DNA from: Murimonas intestini | GTDB lineage: Bacteria > Bacillota > Clostridia > Lachnospirales > Lachnospiraceae | Assembly (NCBI RefSeq): GCF_024622195.1 | Contig: NZ_JANKBI010000031.1 | Span: forward strand, 1-11,700 | Length of the DNA: 11,700 nucleotides | Reading direction: 5' to 3' | In this document: in pieces, positions 375 to 8,332 of the stretch | Numbering within the stretch: the stretch's first letter is position 1 | How the letters are laid out: each line of letters begins with the position of its first letter | Notes under the pieces: model-generated | Seen by the model: only the letters and a program-made list of their open reading frames with translations | Databases searched by the model: none | Told to the model about the DNA's origin: nothing | Position numbers and translations under genes: made by a program

Positions 375-1991
375 ATGGAAACAAAGAAAAGGAAACATAT
401 TATCATAGGAGTGCTTATAACAGTCGTCATAATTGCAGCGGCAGCGGCGGCGGTATGGTTTCTGGTTTTCAGGGAGCCTTCTGCAGCTCAGTCAGCTGGT
501 GACGAGACGGCATATGTAGATTCAGTGGCAAATATAACGGGTCTTGGTTCAGGAAATGGGATGCAGGACAGGTTCTCAGGTGTTGTAGAGCCTCAGAAGA
601 CCTGGAATGTAGAGCTTGCACAGGACAGGAAGGTTAAGAATATATTTGTACAGGAGGGAGAAGAAGTAGCACTTGGAACGAATCTGTTTGAATATGATAC
701 CGCAGATCAGGAAGAGAGCCTGAACCAGGCACAGATAGATCTGGAACGCCTTCAGAATGAGATAGATACAACCAATGCTCAGATAGAGTTACTCCAGAAG
801 GAAAAAGCAAACGCTTCACAGGAGGATCAGCTGGATTATACAACACGTATACAGACTGCACAGAATACAATTAAACGTGATGAATATGATATTAAGAAGA
901 AAAATGTAGAGATAGAGCAGCTGAAAAATACCATTGCTAATTCCATCGTTACATGTGAACTGGATGGAGTAGTTAAAAAAATCAATGAGGATAACAGCAC
1001 TACATCTTCACCTATGGGAAATAGCGGGGATAACAATGCTTTCATGACAATACTTGCAACAGGGGATTACCGTGTTAAGGGAAAAATTAATGAACAGAAT
1101 ATGGCCTCTGTCATGGAGGGCCTTCCTGTGATCGTTCGTTCCAGAGTAGATGATGAAAGAATCTGGAGAGGGACGATAACTACGATTGACCGTGAGAACC
1201 CGGAGACAGATAATAACTCATCAGGAGGCTACGTTTCATATGGAATGGGCGGCGGAAGCACTACTTCAAGTGTAAATTCCACAAATTATCCTTTCTATAT
1301 AACACTTGATAATGCGGATGACCTTATGCTTGGACAGCATGTATATATTGAGATAGACAACGGGCAGGAAGACGGCGAAGAAAAGGAAGGAATCTGGCTT
1401 GACAGTTATTACATCGTCCAGGAGGACGGAAAAGCTTACGTATGGGCGGCAAATGATAAGGACAAGCTGGAAAAACGCAGCATTACTTTAGGAGAGTTAG
1501 ATGATGTCACTCAGAAATACCAGATAACAGAAGGCCTGGAGCCGGATGATTATATCACATTCCCGAGTGAGAATCTCAAGGAAGGCATGTCTGTAGTGCG
1601 GAATGTTGAACAGATGGGGATGAACATGAACGGCGGAAGCGTTGATATGATGGGCGGCGATGGCCCTGTTGACGGCGGCTCAATGGATGCCGGGCCTGGA
1701 GGCAGTGTTGATTTTCCGGAAGGCAGTGATGATATGATGCCTGGCAATGATATTATGGTGCCGGGAAATGAAGATGGTGTTATGGACAGCGGAGACGGCA
1801 TTTCGGCCGGGCCTGACGGAGAAGCAGGAAGCAACGATATGGTGGGACCACAGGAAGAAGTTCCGGAGGCGGATGGAGGTCAGGATGCCCCTGGACCTGA
1901 GGCAGGCGAAGGCGGAGAAGAAGGACCAGCAGGGCCAGAAGATGTGTCTGACCTGGGAGACGGTTTGGCGCCAACGGAAGCAGCACAATAA
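375..1991 (+). CDS. HlyD-family periplasmic adaptor / membrane-fusion protein (MFP1) with N-terminal TM anchor, long coiled-coil hairpin and Met/Asp/Gly-rich acidic C-terminal tail
   Basis: AGGAGG RBS 7 nt upstream of the ATG. The N-terminus KKRKHIIIGVLITVVIIAAAAAAVWFLVF is a signal-anchor. It is followed by a lipoyl-like half-domain (IFVQEGEEVALGTNLFEYD), a long heptad-rich alpha-hairpin, a beta-barrel and a membrane-proximal domain typical of MacA/YknX-type adaptors. The C-terminal roughly 130 aa are low-complexity acidic (DMMGGDGPVDGGSMDAGPGG...). It is paralogous to the downstream adaptor at 2694-4973. Confidence 0.85.
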   Translation: METKKRKHIIIGVLITVVIIAAAAAAVWFLVFREPSAAQSAGDETAYVDSVANITGLGSGNGMQDRFSGVVEPQKTWNVELAQDRKVKNIFVQEGEEVALGTNLFEYDTADQEESLNQAQIDLERLQNEIDTTNAQIELLQKEKANASQEDQLDYTTRIQTAQNTIKRDEYDIKKKNVEIEQLKNTIANSIVTCELDGVVKKINEDNSTTSSPMGNSGDNNAFMTILATGDYRVKGKINEQNMASVMEGLPVIVRSRVDDERIWRGTITTIDRENPETDNNSSGGYVSYGMGGGSTTSSVNSTNYPFYITLDNADDLMLGQHVYIEIDNGQEDGEEKEGIWLDSYYIVQEDGKAYVWAANDKDKLEKRSITLGELDDVTQKYQITEGLEPDDYITFPSENLKEGMSVVRNVEQMGMNMNGGSVDMMGGDGPVDGGSMDAGPGGSVDFPEGSDDMMPGNDIMVPGNEDGVMDSGDGISAGPDGEAGSNDMVGPQEEVPEADGGQDAPGPEAGEGGEEGPAGPEDVSDLGDGLAPTEAAQ

Positions 1992-2007
1992 GAATGGAGG
2001 ACTCACA

Positions 2008-2697
2008 GTGATTCTCGAATTGGATAATATCTATAAGGATTATATACAGGGGAAAATGATAGTCCCTGTATTAAAAGATATCACGCTGCATGTGGAAAAA
2101 GGAGAATATGTAGCCATAATGGGGCCTTCTGGTTCAGGTAAATCAACGCTCATGAATATTATAGGATGCCTGGATAAGCCGACAAAAGGATCGTTCCTTC
2201 TGGATGGTGTAAGCCTTTTGAATAAAAGAGATAATGAACTTGCTGAAATACGCCTGCGCAGTCTTGGTTTTGTTTTTCAGACATTCCAGCTGCTGCCAAG
2301 GCAGTCGGCAGTGGAAAACGTGGCTTTGCCTTTGATTTATGCAGGTGTGTCTAAAAGAGAAAGAATAAAAATGGCAGAAGCAGCTTTAGACAGAGTGGGT
2401 TTGAGCGACAGGTACCATTTTAAGCCTAACCAGCTTTCAGGCGGACAGAAGCAGAGGGTTGCTATTGCTAGAGCTATGGTAAATAATCCAAAGATACTGC
2501 TGGCAGATGAGCCTACAGGCGCTCTTGATTCCAAATCCAGTGCACAGGTAATGGAGCTTTTTGAGAAGCTGAATGAGGAAGGTGTCACTATTATTATGAT
2601 AACCCACGACAGAAATATAGCAGAGCATGCAAAGCGTATCGTGGATATTTTTGATGGTGAGCTTTCTGAGCATAGAGATGAGGAGGTGGCGTTGTGA
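2008..2697 (+). CDS. ABC transporter ATP-binding protein, MacB/FtsE-like stand-alone ATPase
   Basis: Walker A GPSGSGKST, Q-loop, ABC signature LSGGQKQRVAIARAM, Walker B ILLADEPTGALD and H-loop ITHD are all present. The start is taken as the in-frame GTG at 2008 with a GGAGG RBS at 1996-2000 (7 nt spacing). The longer ORF from 1747 overlaps MFP1 and is not credible. The stop TGA overlaps the next gene's GTG (GTGA). Confidence 0.9.
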   Translation: MILELDNIYKDYIQGKMIVPVLKDITLHVEKGEYVAIMGPSGSGKSTLMNIIGCLDKPTKGSFLLDGVSLLNKRDNELAEIRLRSLGFVFQTFQLLPRQSAVENVALPLIYAGVSKRERIKMAEAALDRVGLSDRYHFKPNQLSGGQKQRVAIARAMVNNPKILLADEPTGALDSKSSAQVMELFEKLNEEGVTIIMITHDRNIAEHAKRIVDIFDGELSEHRDEEVAL

Positions 2698-4973
2698 AGA
2701 AAAAGTGGATAGCCCTTATCTGCGCTGTTTCAGTCGCTGCCGTAGGCGGCGGAGGATATGGCATTTATAAAGTAGTCAGTTCAAACAGTACGCCTGTGGA
2801 TGTAGTAAAAGTATCTGATCTGAACATGGGCTGGTGGGGACAGACGACATCTACATCAGGAATGGTTTCATCAACAGTGACTCAGCAGGTACATATGACG
2901 ACAAATCAGCTGGTGAAAGAGATTTATGTAAAAGAGGGCGATGAGGTAAAGATAGGAGATCCTCTTCTGGCCTATGATATGACTCTTGCAGAGCTAGACC
3001 TGGAAATGGAACAGCTGAACGGCAATGCAATAGATCTGCAGATAACAGCAGCTGAGAAGGACCTTGAAAAATTAAAAAATGAAACACCCATCAGTGCATC
3101 TGCGGAGGCAGATATTATGAAAAACGGACAGGTGATGGTGGCTGCCTCAGAAGAGGGGGGCACTGAAGGCACAGACCCGGGGACTGAACCGGCTCCGGCA
3201 TCAGCGGAGGGGACCAGTGAGGCGGCACCGCCAGTGACGGAACCACCACAGACGGAACCTCCAGTGACAGAGGCGCCACAGACAGAACCGCCAGTGACGG
3301 AACCATCACAGACGGAGCCGCCAGTGACAGAGGCACCACAGACAGATGCATCACAGACAAACGCACCACAGACAGACACATCACAGACCAACGCACCGCA
3401 GACGGATGCATCACAGACAGACGCATCTCAGACAGGCGGTGAGACAGATCAGAGCACAGAGCCTAACACCGGGGATTCTGAGCAGACTACGGAGCCAAAT
3501 ACTGATGCAACAGAGGTTACACCCCAGGAAACAGAAGTACCGATGATCATTGATATTACAGTCGTTGTGAACCAGCAGATTGATGAGAGCCTCAGACCTG
3601 AAAAGGTGAAGGTAACTCTGAATGATACAGTTCTCAATGTAAGTAAAGAGACAGTTGAACTCACAAAGGAAAATAACTGGACTTATAAATACCTGGCTAT
3701 GCCTATAGGAGGCACATACAGTCTGACTACTGATGCAGGTGATGCATATGACATCCAGTCTGTTTATGACGAGAATACAAAGACCTTTGATCTGCTGTGC
3801 ACGCCAAAGGCATATGATAAGCTGGATGAAAAGTCAGAGCCATATAAGAAGGGGGAAGGAACGAAAAAATCCCCGGATGTATATTTCTGCCAGGAGGGTG
3901 CAAAGATCGACGCTTCATTCCTGAATAAGGTATATGGGTATGATAAGGATGGCCAGACAAGGCTGACGGACAATACAGGCAGGTATGTTGTTCTGGAAAT
4001 GAGGAAAGATGACCAGGCAAATGGAGAATTTATGAGTGCGTTTGCCATAGACGGAACACAGCCGAGAGATACGGGATTCGCACCTTCAAGTGAGTGGACA
4101 ATAAGCAGTTCAAAGCTGGAGCAGACAGGGGGCAATGAGGTTCAGGAACCAAATATAGAGGAACCTGATTTTGACTTTGGAGGCGGTTTTGATTTCGGAG
4201 GCGGTTTCGGAGGCAACGGTTATACGGCTGACCAGCTTAAGCAGGCTATAGCTGATAAAGAGAGCGAGATAAAGAAACTGAAACTGGATAAAAAAGAATC
4301 AGATTTGAAGATACAGTCACAGCAGAGAAAACTTGATAATGGAGTAGTGAAGAGTTCTATCAATGGTATTGTAAAAACTGTTGGGGATCCCAATGTAGGT
4401 GAGGTCAACAACGAACCATTTATGACGGTTGTCAGTGCAGAGGGGCTGTATGTCACAGGTTCACTCAGTGAGCTTGAATTGGAAAAAGTGAAGGTAGGTT
4501 CCATCATGACAGGGTTTGCATATGATACGGGGGCTTCATTTTCTGCCACAATCACAGAAATTTCCCCATACCCTGACACCTCAGGAAATTATTACAGAGG
4601 GAATAACAATGCATCATATTATCCGTTCACAGCCTATATAGAAGGGGACAGTACTGAGGGGTTGAGCAATTATCAGTATGTGGAGCTTCAGATTCAGGAG
4701 AGTGTAGACGCGTCTGCGGCATCCTCACTATATATTGAAAAGGCTTATATCCGCTCAGAGAACGGTCAGAGCTATGTCTATAAAAAGGACGAAAATAACA
4801 GACTGAAAAAGCAGTATATCAAGACAGGAAAGACAGTTTATTCCACAGCTATCGAAGTGAAGGAAGGTCTTTCTATGGATGACAGCATTGCTTTCCCTTA
4901 CGGGAAAAATGTAAAGGAAGGGGCAAAGGTAAAGACATCGGATGAAGATGATAATACCGTTGTTCCGATGTAG
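2694..4973 (+). CDS. HlyD-family adaptor / membrane-fusion protein (MFP2) with a roughly 370-aa insertion: Pro/Thr/Gln-rich tandem repeat spacer, Cna B-type (prealbumin-like stalk) domain and Gly-Phe motif
   Basis: GTG start overlapping the upstream stop (translational coupling), with an AGGAGG RBS at 2681-2686. The N-terminus KKKWIALICAVSVAAVGGGGYGIY is a TM anchor. A lipoyl-like half (VKEGDEVKIGDPLLAYD) and hairpin helix 1 follow. Then come the PT/Q repeats, a Cna-B-like signature (VKVTLNDTV...VELTKENNWTYKYLAMPIGGTYSLT) and FDFGGGFDFGGGFGGNG. Hairpin helix 2 (ADQLKQAIADKESEIKKLKLDKKESDLKIQ) follows, and beta-barrel and membrane-proximal domains homologous to the C-terminus of MFP1. Confidence 0.85.
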   Translation: MKKKWIALICAVSVAAVGGGGYGIYKVVSSNSTPVDVVKVSDLNMGWWGQTTSTSGMVSSTVTQQVHMTTNQLVKEIYVKEGDEVKIGDPLLAYDMTLAELDLEMEQLNGNAIDLQITAAEKDLEKLKNETPISASAEADIMKNGQVMVAASEEGGTEGTDPGTEPAPASAEGTSEAAPPVTEPPQTEPPVTEAPQTEPPVTEPSQTEPPVTEAPQTDASQTNAPQTDTSQTNAPQTDASQTDASQTGGETDQSTEPNTGDSEQTTEPNTDATEVTPQETEVPMIIDITVVVNQQIDESLRPEKVKVTLNDTVLNVSKETVELTKENNWTYKYLAMPIGGTYSLTTDAGDAYDIQSVYDENTKTFDLLCTPKAYDKLDEKSEPYKKGEGTKKSPDVYFCQEGAKIDASFLNKVYGYDKDGQTRLTDNTGRYVVLEMRKDDQANGEFMSAFAIDGTQPRDTGFAPSSEWTISSSKLEQTGGNEVQEPNIEEPDFDFGGGFDFGGGFGGNGYTADQLKQAIADKESEIKKLKLDKKESDLKIQSQQRKLDNGVVKSSINGIVKTVGDPNVGEVNNEPFMTVVSAEGLYVTGSLSELELEKVKVGSIMTGFAYDTGASFSATITEISPYPDTSGNYYRGNNNASYYPFTAYIEGDSTEGLSNYQYVELQIQESVDASAASSLYIEKAYIRSENGQSYVYKKDENNRLKKQYIKTGKTVYSTAIEVKEGLSMDDSIAFPYGKNVKEGAKVKTSDEDDNTVVPM
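3227..3440. repeat. In-frame imperfect tandem nucleotide repeats (4 x approximately 30 nt, then 6 x approximately 15 nt) encoding TEPPVTEAPQ / TDASQ / TNAPQ units
   Basis: Directly visible periodicity: ccagtgacRgaNccNccacagacRgaNcc repeated, followed by tcacagacaNacgca-type 15-mers. These account for the spurious alternate-frame and antisense ORFs at 2972-3546. Confidence 0.8.
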
Positions 4974-4984
4974 GAGGTGGAGAG

Positions 4985-6241
4985 GTGTTAGAAAATATCA
5001 GGTTGTCAATTCAGGGAATATGGTCGCATAAAATGCGTTCTTTCCTGACAATGCTTGGAATCATCATTGGTATAGCATCCATCATCTCCATTGTTTCTAC
5101 TATTCAGGGGACAAATGAGCAGATAAAGAAGAACCTGATCGGTTCAGGAAATAATACGGTGGATATCAAGCTGTATCAGGGAGACATGGAATATTATCTG
5201 GATGATTACAGCGGTATCCCAAAAGGAGTTCCTGTAGTTACAGAAAAAGTCAGGGAAGAGATGGAAAAGGTAGATGGTGTAGCCGATGTTTCGCTCTATT
5301 CCAAAAGAAGTTATGCCGACAGTGTTTATTATAAGAATACCAGTATGGATGGCGCTAATGTTATGGGGATAGATCTGCATTATTTTAATACCTGCGGGTA
5401 TATCATGCGGACAGGGCGTGAATTCATACAGCAGGATTATGATGAATTCAGAAAGGTCGTGATTCTGGATCAGACAGCGGCCACCAGCCTGTTTCAGGAG
5501 GAAGATCCTCTGGGCAAGACTATAGAGATTAAGGGTGAACCTTTCACCGTTGTGGGCGTGACAGAGAAAAGCGAGGCTTTTGAGCCTGTTATCAATTCGA
5601 TGGAGGATTACTGGACGTATATGGGGAACCAGGCCAGCGGGTTTATTTATATGCCATATGCTACCTGGTGTGTGCCCTACCAGTATGATGAGCCTCAGAA
5701 TGTAATAGTCAGGGCTAACAGCACAGATGAGATGAGTGCCGTAGGTAAGAAATGTGCTGATATTTTGAACGCATACGTCACTTCACAGGATGACGTGAAA
5801 TATAAGGCGGCTGACCTGCTTGAACAGGCTAAGGAGCTCCAGGATCTGAGCGCGGCCACAAATAACCAGCTGATATGGATCGCTAGTATTTCACTGCTTG
5901 TAGGCGGCATCGGCGTTATGAATATCATGCTTGTTTCGGTCACAGAGAGGACAAGTGAGATCGGTCTTAAAAAGGCCATAGGGGCAAAAAAGAAGAGGAT
6001 TCTCGGCCAGTTTCTTACAGAGGCGGCTGTGCTTACAAGCCTTGGAGGCATTATAGGAGTCATTGCAGGAATCGGGCTTGCCCAGGCTATCTCCAAAATG
6101 TCCCAGACGCCGGTAGCCATCAGCGTCCCGGCTATTATAGGATCCGTTATCTTTTCAATGCTTATAGGCATCATATTCGGCCTGCTGCCTTCAATCAAGG
6201 CATCAAACCTGAATCCTATCGATGCTCTGAGACATGAGTAA
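4985..6241 (+). CDS. ABC transporter permease, FtsX/MacB-type (4 TM with large extracytoplasmic domain)
   Basis: GTG start 11 nt after the upstream stop, with an AGGAGGTGGAGAG RBS. The N-terminus LENIRLSIQGIWSHKMRSFLTMLGIIIGIASIISIVS is the classic MacB/FtsX TM1. An extracytoplasmic domain of about 250 aa follows, and then three C-terminal TM helices (SISLLVGGIGVMNIMLVSVTERTSEIGLKKAIGA...). Confidence 0.85.
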   Translation: MLENIRLSIQGIWSHKMRSFLTMLGIIIGIASIISIVSTIQGTNEQIKKNLIGSGNNTVDIKLYQGDMEYYLDDYSGIPKGVPVVTEKVREEMEKVDGVADVSLYSKRSYADSVYYKNTSMDGANVMGIDLHYFNTCGYIMRTGREFIQQDYDEFRKVVILDQTAATSLFQEEDPLGKTIEIKGEPFTVVGVTEKSEAFEPVINSMEDYWTYMGNQASGFIYMPYATWCVPYQYDEPQNVIVRANSTDEMSAVGKKCADILNAYVTSQDDVKYKAADLLEQAKELQDLSAATNNQLIWIASISLLVGGIGVMNIMLVSVTERTSEIGLKKAIGAKKKRILGQFLTEAAVLTSLGGIIGVIAGIGLAQAISKMSQTPVAISVPAIIGSVIFSMLIGIIFGLLPSIKASNLNPIDALRHE

Positions 6242-6380: not shown

Positions 6381-6413
6381 GGGCCTGACTTGTCAGGCCC
6401 CTTTTTTTCTTTT
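6381..6413 (+). terminator. Rho-independent terminator of the 375-6241 operon
   Basis: GGGCCTGAC-TT-GTCAGGCCC is a perfect 9-bp GC-rich stem, followed by CTTTTTTTCTTTT. Confidence 0.85.
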
Positions 6414-6673: not shown

Positions 6674-8332
6674 ATGGAAGGGATATCTATCGGAATCATT
6701 ATTGCAGCAGTAATAGCGGTACTGATCATCATTTTGCTGGCCGCGGGCTATGTTAAAGCGCCGCCTAATAAAGCTTACATCATATCAGGTATGCGTAAGA
6801 GACCTAAGATCCTTATAGGCAGGGCAGGTTTCAGGATACCGTTTCTGGAGAGGATGAATGTACTTTACCTGAATCAGATAACTATCGATATTAAAACGGA
6901 CAATTATATACCTACTCTTGATTATATCAATGTGCAGGTGGATGCAGTTGCAAAGGTAAGGATCAACTCTGACAGTGAAGAGATGATGCTTCTCGCTATG
7001 AAAAACTTTTTGGATAAGAAGCCTTCGGAGATCGTTACAGACCTGCAGGATTCTCTTCAGGGAAATATGAGGGAAATTATCGGAACTCTGGACCTTAAGA
7101 CAATCTGCAACAACAGGGATGAATTCAGTAATCAGGTACAGGAAAAGGCTTCCGTAGACATGATGAAGCTGGGCATTGAGATTATATCCTGCAATATCCA
7201 GAATGTAGAGGACGAGCATGGCCTTATCCAGGATATGGGTATGGATAATACTTCAAAGATTAAAAAGGATGCGGCGATCGCAAAAGCAAATTCCGAAAAA
7301 GAAATCGCAATTGCCCAGGCTGAGGCTGACAAATTATCGAATGACGCCAGGGTAATCTCACAGACAGAGATAGCAAAGCGGAATAATGAGCTGGCTATCC
7401 GACAGTCAGAGCTTAAAAAAGAGGCTGACACAGTTAAGGCTGAAGCTGATATGGTCTATCAGATCAGAACAGAGGACCAGCGTAAGACTCTGGAGATTAC
7501 AAGAACAAATGCTGACATCGCAAAGCAGGAGCGGGAGATAGAGCTCAAGCAGAAGGAAGCATCGGTACGTGAACAGCAGCTGAATGCTGAGGTAAAAAAG
7601 AAAGCGGACGCCATGCGTTATGAACAGGAGCAGAAGGCTCAGGCAGAGCTGTTCAAGCGTCAGAAGGATGCTGAGGCCGCCCGTTATGAGCAGGAGCAGG
7701 AGGCAGAGGCCCAGAAGGCACGCGCCGAAGCCATGAAATTTGAAAAGGAACAGACTGCGGAAGGAATCAGGCTGGTGGGACAGGCAGAGGCTCAGGCAAT
7801 TGAAGCAAAAGGAAAAGCTGAAGCCGAAGCCATGGAAAAGAAGGCCGAAGCCTACAGTAAATATAATAAAGCCGCAATGGCTGAAATGCTCATCAATATC
7901 CTTCCTGAAATGGCCGGAAGGATTGCAGAGCCTCTCGCACAGATTGACAAGATCGTCCTGATCGGCGGCGGGGATGACGGAAGCGGTGTGAGCCAGATTG
8001 CCGGAAATGTGCCGGCTGTACTTACAAAGGTCATGGAAGCCATGAAGGAGACAACGGGTGTGGATCTTGCAGAAATCATGCGGGCCGATACGTATGATGC
8101 GAAAGTAAATAAGAATATTAATTTTACAGGATTTGACGGTCTGTTTGGCAAAGAAAAGGATAAAACAGCAGAAGCCGGAAAATCCGGGGATAAAGATTCA
8201 CACAGCGGATATGCGAAAGAGGGAAAGACAGAGGCTGAGGAAAAGGCAGCGGCAGCTACAGAGGCAGTTAAAGGCATGATGAAGGATGTAGTGAAGGATG
8301 TAAGGGACGCATTCAATAAAGATAAAAAGTAG
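6674..8332 (+). CDS. floT: Flotillin-like SPFH/band-7 protein (FloT/YuaG-like) with EA-rich coiled-coil repeats
   Basis: ATG at 6674 with an AGGAGG RBS at 6661-6666. The TTG at 6632 used by the ORF track lacks an RBS. N-terminal membrane hairpin IGIIIAAVIAVLIIILLAAGY, then an SPFH core (AYIISGMRKRPKILIGRAGFRIPFLERMNVLYLNQITIDIKT...). A long Glu/Ala/Lys/Gln-rich coiled coil follows (AEAQKARAEAMKFEKEQTAEG...AEAQAIEAKGKAEAEAMEKKAEA), typical of bacterial flotillins. Confidence 0.85.
   Translation: MEGISIGIIIAAVIAVLIIILLAAGYVKAPPNKAYIISGMRKRPKILIGRAGFRIPFLERMNVLYLNQITIDIKTDNYIPTLDYINVQVDAVAKVRINSDSEEMMLLAMKNFLDKKPSEIVTDLQDSLQGNMREIIGTLDLKTICNNRDEFSNQVQEKASVDMMKLGIEIISCNIQNVEDEHGLIQDMGMDNTSKIKKDAAIAKANSEKEIAIAQAEADKLSNDARVISQTEIAKRNNELAIRQSELKKEADTVKAEADMVYQIRTEDQRKTLEITRTNADIAKQEREIELKQKEASVREQQLNAEVKKKADAMRYEQEQKAQAELFKRQKDAEAARYEQEQEAEAQKARAEAMKFEKEQTAEGIRLVGQAEAQAIEAKGKAEAEAMEKKAEAYSKYNKAAMAEMLINILPEMAGRIAEPLAQIDKIVLIGGGDDGSGVSQIAGNVPAVLTKVMEAMKETTGVDLAEIMRADTYDAKVNKNINFTGFDGLFGKEKDKTAEAGKSGDKDSHSGYAKEGKTEAEEKAAAATEAVKGMMKDVVKDVRDAFNKDKK

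Follow-up and report, generated by a model that had tools for sequence, protein, structure and literature searches.

The operon and the insertion site in its second adaptor

Four close-packed genes on the + strand occupy bases 375–6241 of the window, by which we mean the whole 11,700-nt stretch of Murimonas intestini DNA analysed here (contig NZ_JANKBI010000031.1), and encode, in this order, a first adaptor (MFP1), a MacB-type ATP-binding cassette (ABC) ATPase, a second adaptor (MFP2) and a MacB/FtsX-type permease (Table 1). The top NCBIfam match of the ATPase is the N-terminal half of MacB (E 4.4e-79) and the permease corresponds to the permease half of MacB (E 4.5e-53). The operon is a split MacB-type pump with adaptors, of the kind represented by YknXYZ in Bacillus and Spr0693–0695 in S. 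pneumoniae. The subject of this report is MFP2, in which the two helices of the adaptor hairpin are separated by an insert of 378 aa. A sequence-only reading of the window had described this protein as an efflux adaptor with an adhesin-type stalk, made up of a Pro/Thr repeat spacer, a Cna B-like domain and an FG-Gly motif, inserted at the tip of the alpha-hairpin (bases 3100–4230, which are MFP2 aa 136–513 and, thus, the insert), and all of the peptides quoted in it lie within the 759-aa open reading frame at 2694–4973.

MFP2 is a complete adaptor of the YknX/Spr0693/MacA type, consisting of a membrane anchor, a split lipoyl domain, an alpha-hairpin, a beta-barrel and a membrane-proximal part, and its homologs are annotated with the Pfam domain BSH_YknX (PF25984). 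Biotin_lipoyl_2 was found at aa 73–95 (E 2e-4), as in the split lipoyl domain of the adaptor family, positions 96–320 of TIGR01730, which cover the barrel and membrane-proximal part, correspond to aa 516–747 (E 1e-15), and the adjoining genes encode ABC_tran, MacB_PCD and FtsX domains, placing the adaptor beside its transporter. In an AlphaFold2 (AF2) model built on a 20-sequence family alignment, the beta-strands of the two lipoyl halves (aa 53–94 and 551–592) flank two predicted helices of 32 and 37 residues, as in the antiparallel hairpin of adaptors. The first helix quoted earlier (MTLAELDLEMEQLNGNAIDLQITAAEKDLEKLKNE) is MFP2 aa 96–130 and the second (ADQLKQAIADKESEIKKLKLDKKESDLKIQSQQRKL) is aa 512–547, the latter opening with YT-x-[DE]-[EQ]-L, which is conserved in the family. 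When the AF2 model was searched with Foldseek, the matches included MacA from the MacAB-TolC pump (5nik_D, 3e-11), AcrA (7e-11), MexA and Spr0693 (5xu0, 2e-8), so that TIGR01730, Foldseek and the MacB-type operon all bear out the assignment of MFP2 as an efflux adaptor. Over the whole of MFP2, TIGR01730 scored 57.5 bits against a curated cut-off of 94.9, because the insert splits the profile match.

In order to locate the insert, MFP2 was compared with MFP1, which has an uninterrupted ordinary hairpin and no insert. With aa 133–506 removed, MFP2 is colinear with MFP1 over 350 residues (28% identity, E 3e-27), the best match among PDB sequences is Spr0693 (5xu0), and the deletion junction (NETP|GNGY) lies opposite the MFP1 turn KEK-ANASQEDQ. 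Hence, the insert is at the hairpin turn and not in a loop of the beta-barrel. The number of residues at the turn between half-profiles derived from MFP2 was always 3 in 77 MFP1 proteins, versus a median of 204 in 85 MFP2 proteins, and together with the AF2 helices and the colinearity with MFP1 this comparison upholds the tip location proposed from the sequence. The constant 3-residue turn of MFP1 indicates that the hairpins of the paralogs are equal in length and only that of MFP2 is decorated; this match in length suggests that the two adaptors contribute to a single tube. From helix 1, the insert runs through an acidic linker of ~150 aa, a Cna_B-type sandwich, a second folded domain that we named GEGT, and a return linker of 28 aa to helix 2. 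This anatomy, that is the insertion site and the order of the modules, is very probably correct.

MFP1 itself ends in a disordered tail of ~130 aa rich in Gly, Asp, Met, Pro and Glu (MGMNMNGGSVDMMGGDG...GEEGPAGPEDVSD; aa ~410–538, window 1600–1991), where the local GC content reaches 0.546. Strongly acidic low-complexity regions are thus found in both adaptors, at different places.

Table 1. Coordinates of the pump genes, of the parts of MFP2 and of the terminator-like element in the window (aa positions under MFP2 are those of MFP2; pLDDT, predicted local distance difference test score)
Feature	Position or length (aa)	Window (nt)	Strand	Evidence
MFP1, first adaptor, YknX-like	538 aa	375..1991	+	TIGR01730 E 3.3e-19; Pfam BSH_YknX, Beta-barrel_YknX
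MacB-type ABC ATPase	229 aa	2008..2697	+	ABC_tran E 1.9e-35
MFP2, second adaptor with hairpin-tip insert	759 aa	2694..4973	+	Open reading frame; TIGR01730 on both sides of insert
MFP2, N-terminal membrane anchor helix	5–30	2706..2783	+	AF2 helices 5–19 and 21–30; hydrophobic after KKK
MFP2, hairpin helix 1	97–131	2982..3086	+	AF2 helix 97–128, pLDDT ~90; aligns to MFP1 helix 1
MFP2, disordered acidic Pro/Thr/Gln/Ser/Glu linker	132–282	3087..3539	+	pLDDT ~30; Tandem Repeats Finder (TRF) repeats
MFP2, Cna_B-type beta-sandwich	283–371	3540..3806	+	Pfam, sub-threshold; phmmer; colinear with P0130
MFP2, GEGT domain, beta-rich with one helix	372–481 (~105 aa)	3807..4136	+	pLDDT >90 in two-domain model
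MFP2, return linker, Asp/Gly/Phe, includes FDFGGGFDFGGGFGGNG	482–509	4137..4220	+	pLDDT <50
MFP2, hairpin helix 2	510–548	4221..4337	+	AF2 helix 512–548, pLDDT ~90; aligns to MFP1 helix 2
MFP2, second lipoyl half, beta-barrel and membrane-proximal part	549–759	4338..4970	+	TIGR01730; AF2 strands, pLDDT 75–90; 5xu0 alignment
MacB/FtsX-type permease	418 aa	4985..6241	+	MacB_PCD E 1.2e-34; FtsX E 7.9e-23
Terminator-like stem-loop and T-run closing the four-gene operon		6381..6410	+	8-bp stem with 6 G-C pairs, then CTTTTTTTCT; consensus match only

Contents of the insert and their distribution

The folded part of the insert that is conserved across the family was missed by the sequence-only reading, which had recognised the linker and the Cna B-like domain correctly. 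We named this domain GEGT from the motif G-x-G-T-x3-P-Y-x-F-x-C, which is followed by F-L-N ... L-E-I-R ... D-G-T, and it has invariant Gly, Pro and Asn positions. Pfam gave no match to GEGT, only sub-threshold hints to EstA_Ig_like and GOLD, a GEGT profile found no match among PDB sequences, and no relation to the Cna_B-like segment was detected with hhalign. When the two domains were modelled together on a 53-sequence alignment and the model was searched with Foldseek, SpaC and the two-subdomain Cna B1 unit were matched over ~211–222 columns, with weak scores and aligned residues unreported, and on the strength of this model GEGT may be another small sandwich of the same general kind.

A GEGT profile search of 1.84 billion cluster representatives recovered 243 proteins (clusters at 50% identity). 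In 116 of the best 150 of these, GEGT is located between the N- and C-terminal halves of an adaptor, and nearly all of the others are fragments. Two non-adaptor carriers, neither with further Pfam annotation, are P0176 (504 aa), which has a signal peptide, two GEGT domains each followed by an unknown domain, and LPKTG with a hydrophobic stretch and a basic tail, and P0179 (310 aa), with three SLH domains followed by GEGT. Their presence in LPKTG and SLH proteins indicates that GEGT domains belong to the Gram-positive repertoire of wall-associated surface proteins. Three further candidates (P0160, P0248 and P0254) were discarded, as their matches were partial, repeat-driven ones to Peptidase_G2 and WD40 proteins.

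The only cysteines of MFP2 beyond the membrane anchor are Cys369 (3798–3800), at the Cna_B/GEGT boundary, and Cys399 (3888–3890), in the conserved F-x-C of GEGT; in many relatives the F-x-C is paired instead with a Cys in a G-C-Y-V strand. To judge from these positions, a disulfide in an extracytoplasmic domain of an anaerobe is possible.

The status of the Cna B-like domain depends on relatives of MFP2. It includes KVKVTLNDTV...NNWTYKYLAMPIGGTYSLT (aa 304–344), and Pfam Cna_B (PF05738) scored 18.4 bits (E 0.0029) with the isolated insert and 14.9 bits with the whole of MFP2, both below the gathering score of 22.3. Homology is nevertheless supported by phmmer, which found the B repeats of the S. 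aureus collagen adhesin (1d2p, E 5.7e-6) via RPEKVxVxL and NNWTYKY..P, and by the relative P0130, which has a Pfam-significant Cna_B domain (36.7 bits) directly before its GEGT domain. The Cna_B and GEGT segment of MFP2 is colinear with P0130 (E 4e-29), and the Cna_B part alone matches the Cna_B segment of P0130 in BLASTP (E 1e-4, 30% identity over 63 aa). As P0130 is above the threshold, the colinear alignment is the decisive transitive link of the MFP2 segment to Cna_B. Within the family the link was established by Pfam scans of the relatives; jackhmmer started from the Cna_B-like segment gave P0001 as the sole match in the family, and simple regular expressions for Cna_B motifs in relatives returned nothing useful. 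Seven strands are predicted in the segment, at a pLDDT of just 44–63.

Like the CnaB stalks of Gram-positive surface proteins (S. aureus Cna B repeats, RrgB, SpaC), MFP2 combines RPEKVxVxL ... NNWTYxY ... P with a Pro/Thr-rich spacer alongside, and the likeness may extend to the fold level, where two tandem small sandwiches are matched to the Cna B1 unit over ~220 columns with weak scores. Unlike them, MFP2 has a single copy of the domain, which lies in a loop of a membrane-anchored adaptor and not in a secreted, sortase-anchored chain. A search for LP.[TSA]G across MFP2 found none and the C-terminus is the membrane-proximal part of the adaptor; MFP2 is not a sortase substrate. The first beta-strand (IIDITVVVNQ), as read from the sequence, also differs from that of sortase-anchored CnaB proteins in having no Lys for the canonical isopeptide. 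Hence, neither of the outcomes that would have spoken for an unrelated fused surface protein or a different site, namely an LPXTG or isopeptide motif and a position in a barrel loop, was found.

The linkers have evolved differently from the domains. Tandem repeats with periods of 15, 30 and 60 nt at 3223–3435 (TRF scores 116–212) confirm the Pro/Thr/Gln repeat spacer and account for the local anomaly in GC content (0.556) and AT skew (0.52) of the linker DNA. The encoded N-side linker contains 30 Asp and Glu residues versus 1 Lys or Arg, and aa 142–300 are disordered in the AF2 model (pLDDT ~30). In the return linker, which includes FDFGGGFDFGGGFGGNG at aa 493–509, the FDFGGG stretch is an 18-nt unit present in 2.2 copies at 4169–4207 (TRF). 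Though this stretch had been listed as an FG-Gly element of the insert, at least two copies of Phe/Trp-Gly/Asp repeats are found in just 8 of 124 relatives, and we rejected it as a conserved FG-type motif; it is a lineage-specific, local variant of the acidic return linker. Comparison with the closest homolog (P0001, 71% identity overall) gave 72% identity for Cna_B, 86% for GEGT and 77–89% for the adaptor core, versus 42% for the N-side linker and 46% for the return linker. The folded modules match the adaptor core in conservation and the linkers fall behind, in line with selection on the modules but not on the linkers.

The second adaptor with its matched hairpin and the design common to the whole family had been overlooked by the sequence-only reading. 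A whole-protein search found 180 relatives of MFP2, of 549–1124 aa, among them proteins from Blautia, Limivivens and Muricoprocola. A scan of species-representative genomes with a full-length MFP2 alignment found at least 80 loci, almost all in Lachnospiraceae (Robinsoniella, Marvinbryantia, Roseburia, Blautia, Eubacterium ramulus ATCC 29099 and Fusicatenibacter saccharivorans), and the operon is thus widespread in abundant gut members of this family, including F. saccharivorans AM67-22ACA and Blautia assemblies. Among the 80 loci listed, 62 have exactly the gene order MFP1-ATPase-MFP2-permease and most of the others show a variant of it or are truncated at a contig end; GEGT is present in 76 of the 80 MFP2 proteins and in none of 73 MFP1 orthologs.

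An assembly chimera, or a one-off fusion with a surface protein of the sortase type, has next to no probability as the origin of this arrangement. An identical 759-aa MFP2 was found on 10 independent contigs, two NCBI assemblies among them, the same architecture recurs in at least 80 species-level genomes, and the reading frame is continuous with no LPXTG; the 10 identical copies and the recurrent operon exclude a chance fusion. That chimeras do occur can be seen in P0159 (376 aa), in which an FtsK/VirB4-like fragment is joined to a stretch identical to a Blautia MFP2 insert, and which is itself probably an assembly chimera.

The MFP2 turn is an insertion hotspot across the family, with GEGT nearly always there in 1–4 copies. 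Among the adaptors matching the GEGT profile in the best 150, the insert ranges from 114 to 794 aa (median 264) and contains one GEGT copy in 95 cases, two in 19 and three in 3. Helix 2 follows the last GEGT at a median distance of 26 residues (interquartile range 20–49; 26 in the MFP2 of the window), whereas the spacing between helix 1 and the first GEGT varies, with a median of 62 and a maximum of 651. The variable modules are on the helix-1 side and comprise acidic linkers poor in Lys and Arg, Pro/Thr repeats, Cna_B, immunoglobulin (Ig) and InlB B-repeat domains, and helical segments. Cna_B was found in the inserts of P0130 and one further member (E 1.9e-10), with the same motif seen by eye in P0136, an I-set Ig domain in that of P0173 and an InlB B-repeat in that of P0174.

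This range of lengths could be explained if the turn, which has no TolC partner, were a permissive loop on which repeats and mobile surface modules piled up with little or no function. The linkers, as fast-evolving DNA tandem repeats, and the lineage-specific FG-Gly stretch are consistent with such tolerated expansion, as are the 22 disordered residues already present in the Spr0693 turn and the existence of a minimal ortholog with an acidic loop alone. However, GEGT lies at a fixed site by helix 2 in nearly all of the listed MFP2 proteins and never in MFP1, its conservation equals that of the adaptor core, and its best matches lie mainly between adaptor halves, the other full-length carriers being LPXTG and SLH proteins. 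The Cna_B-GEGT pair was, moreover, kept between distant members. We consider an expansion of little functional consequence distinctly unlikely.

Some members depart from the common pattern. A sub-branch of MFP2 proteins without GEGT (P0008, P0015 and the protein encoded at 2444–4591 of locus L065) has a long turn segment that appears alpha-helical by eye and has no Pfam match (e.g. INSFLTRVNQLSTQELDSLIPSDISEALRIFRE...), and that still ends in a D/G/F linker followed by YTAEEL. Six proteins of ~1050–1120 aa (P0011, P0012, P0013, P0014, P0017 and P0018) include VTVQWNHGTN...WP..L.L.FY ~170 aa before GEGT, broken by a long acidic loop; as the W-x-H-G-T-N start is common to the Cna_B of P0130 and P0136, this segment is probably a Cna_B domain split by an insertion of its own. 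The MFP2 of locus L043 (7684–9006, 440 aa) has an acidic loop of ~55 aa and no GEGT. The operon there (MFP1-ATPase-MFP2-permease) is complete and on a 156-kb contig that is labelled as a Paludibacteraceae metagenome-assembled genome and binned with the Bacteroidota; the contig either comes from a Firmicutes genome and was binned wrongly, or reflects a transfer of the operon into a diderm that does without the tip modules.

Possible roles of the tip modules

The solved adaptors MacA, YknX and Spr0693 form hexameric tubes (PMC5768738; PMC8277102), and the apex of the Spr0693 assembly was modelled ~154 Å above the membrane, at the depth of the inner-wall zone (PMC5768738). The role of the hairpins in Gram-positive adaptors has been called unexplained, and the known variation among adaptors concerns hairpin length, absence of the hairpin, or extra domains at the termini, for example in CusB and SilB (PMC4446572). 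In targeted literature searches, which took in reviews up to 2026, we found no mention of globular insertions in the hairpin turn of adaptors or of two-adaptor MacB pumps in Clostridia. MFP2 shares its anchor, split lipoyl domain, alpha-hairpin, beta-barrel and membrane-proximal part with Spr0693, YknX and MacA, and its gene, like those of Spr0693 and YknX, is accompanied by separate genes for a MacB-type ATPase and an FtsX-type permease. The hairpin turn of Spr0693 is also disordered (Pro142–Gly163; PMC5768738), but these ~22 residues compare with a modular insert of 378 aa that includes two folded domains. The window operon further differs from the Spr0693 and YknX systems in encoding two adaptor paralogs, and from the YknX system in having no YknW-like fourth membrane protein.

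In Gram-negative bacteria, operons that combine a single transporter with two adaptor paralogs are known for TriABC-OpmH of P. aeruginosa and VarABCDEF of V. cholerae. By analogy, MFP1 and MFP2 would form a pair, and their equal hairpin lengths are as expected for a mixed hexamer; TriABC and Var, unlike the window pair, dock to an outer-membrane duct and have adaptors without a tip insert, and TriABC is driven by a resistance-nodulation-division (RND) transporter. On this model, we propose that MFP1 and MFP2 co-assemble, probably in alternation, in one hexameric tube on the transporter, and an alternating hexamer would carry about three inserts at its distal rim. The GEGT domains would form a crown near the mouth of the tube, held within a few nanometres of it by the short return linker, and the acidic linkers and adhesin-type sandwiches would make up a hydrated, negatively charged fringe extending from the inner-wall zone into the peptidoglycan. 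The insert would then be the wall-facing interface of a pump whose cell lacks an outer-membrane duct, and may position the exit in the wall or keep it open. It would act non-covalently, as there is no sorting signal, and non-catalytically, and the substrates, again by analogy, may be antimicrobial peptides or other membrane-active compounds.

The stalk suggested earlier, which would carry the adaptor across the wall, does not agree with this topology. The insert is tethered to the tip at its start and at its end, and just 26 residues separate its last folded domain from helix 2, so that the modules must stay close to the tip and the long linker provides slack on one side rather than a riser.

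Several points weigh against the crown and fringe. We infer that a hexamer forms, in what ratio it contains MFP1 and MFP2, and where the insert lies with respect to the pore; the Cna_B part was modelled at low confidence, with a pLDDT of 50–60; and the insert shows none of the known domains that bind peptidoglycan or teichoic acid. The absence of GEGT from the L043 adaptor and from 4 of the 80 listed orthologs also implies that the crown is dispensable to the pump. We put the probability of the reading as a whole at roughly 0.5, because its two parts differ in strength: the anatomy is close to secure, while the wall-facing function, though the likeliest of those considered, is tentative and somewhat less than an even bet.

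A stronger version would make the tip modules the Gram-positive counterpart of the outer-membrane duct, with GEGT domains closed into a ring, and Cna_B or other sandwiches stacked on it, that prolongs the alpha-barrel of the mixed hexamer as a continuous protein conduit leading from the MacB-type transporter into or through the peptidoglycan. We consider this rather unlikely; if true, GEGT would be a domain family not recognised before, whose dedicated role is to cap adaptor tubes.

A further alternative is that GEGT, Cna_B and the acidic linkers bind a specific ligand, which may be the pump substrate (peptides of the cationic antimicrobial kind, for example), a polymer of the wall, or a host or dietary glycan, and serve as a receptor or sink at the pump mouth. 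The strong conservation of GEGT, both in identity to P0001 and in its invariant Gly, Pro and Asn positions, and its recurrence in wall-anchored surface proteins would suit such capture, the very acidic linkers poor in Lys and Arg would attract cationic peptides, and related pumps protect against LL-37 and SDP (PMC5768738; PMC8277102). However, the insert has no likeness to known binding domains in Pfam or among PDB sequences, GEGT is lacking in some orthologs, and the free exchange of the extra modules (Cna_B, Ig, InlB repeat and helical) among lineages is a better fit to spacers. Hence, capture as the main role also appears unlikely.

The last possibility arises from the transporter type. FtsEX, a type VII ABC system, acts with a coiled-coil partner bearing a distal domain (EnvC, PcsB or CwlO), and the pump resembles it in pairing a transporter of the MacB/FtsX fold with a long coiled coil, modelled here as the hairpin, that has globular domains at its far end in the wall compartment. 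ATP-driven permease motion transmitted through the coiled coil might, as in FtsEX, switch an extracellular partner such as a wall hydrolase, and Amidase_3 genes are found a few kb downstream in the Blautia locus. EnvC and PcsB differ from MFP2, though, in that they lack the HlyD/MFP adaptor fold and do not assemble into hexameric tubes, and in that their distal domains are of the LytM or CHAP hydrolase type, whereas the MFP2 modules are non-enzymatic beta-sandwiches with flexible linkers. Pfam revealed no enzymatic or known regulatory domain in the insert, flexible linkers on either side of the modules would convey force poorly, the operon contains no conserved partner gene, and the amidase neighbours are absent from the window locus. 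We therefore regard mechanotransmission as highly unlikely.

Why bacteria without an outer membrane keep prominent adaptor hairpins is an acknowledged question (PMC4446572; PMC5768738), to which the MFP2 insert offers a natural experiment, since the hairpin tip of one of two matched adaptors has been turned into a display site for cell-surface modules. Display at this place points to the tip as a functional wall interface, and the pairing with MFP1 suggests that heteromeric adaptors exist in monoderms. The family also adds the uncharacterised GEGT domain and a clear case of domain insertion at the turn of a coiled coil. While this is not a new principle, it makes the question of the Gram-positive hairpins directly testable in common gut bacteria, as GEGT is a defined domain that is open to deletion, labelling and structure solution.

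Genomic setting

The pump lies among genes of the housekeeping type, with grpE, dnaK, dnaJ and glyA on its 5' side in the source genome and a flotillin (FloT) homolog, an epimerase, rpsB and tsf on its 3' side, a setting that is not that of a mobile element; the Blautia locus is of the housekeeping type too. An Rfam scan of the window gave no match. Within the operon, the GTG start of MFP2 shares bases with the stop codon of the ATPase gene (GTGA, window 2694–2697) and the gap between the end of MFP2 and the start of the permease (window 4973–4985) is 11 nt, which suggests translational coupling of the four genes. The FloT homolog (6674–8332, E 6.5e-94) is directly downstream of the putative pump terminator; it is not beside the pump in the Blautia locus, and has a long Ala/Glu/Lys-rich centre and a Lys/Glu/Ala-rich tail.

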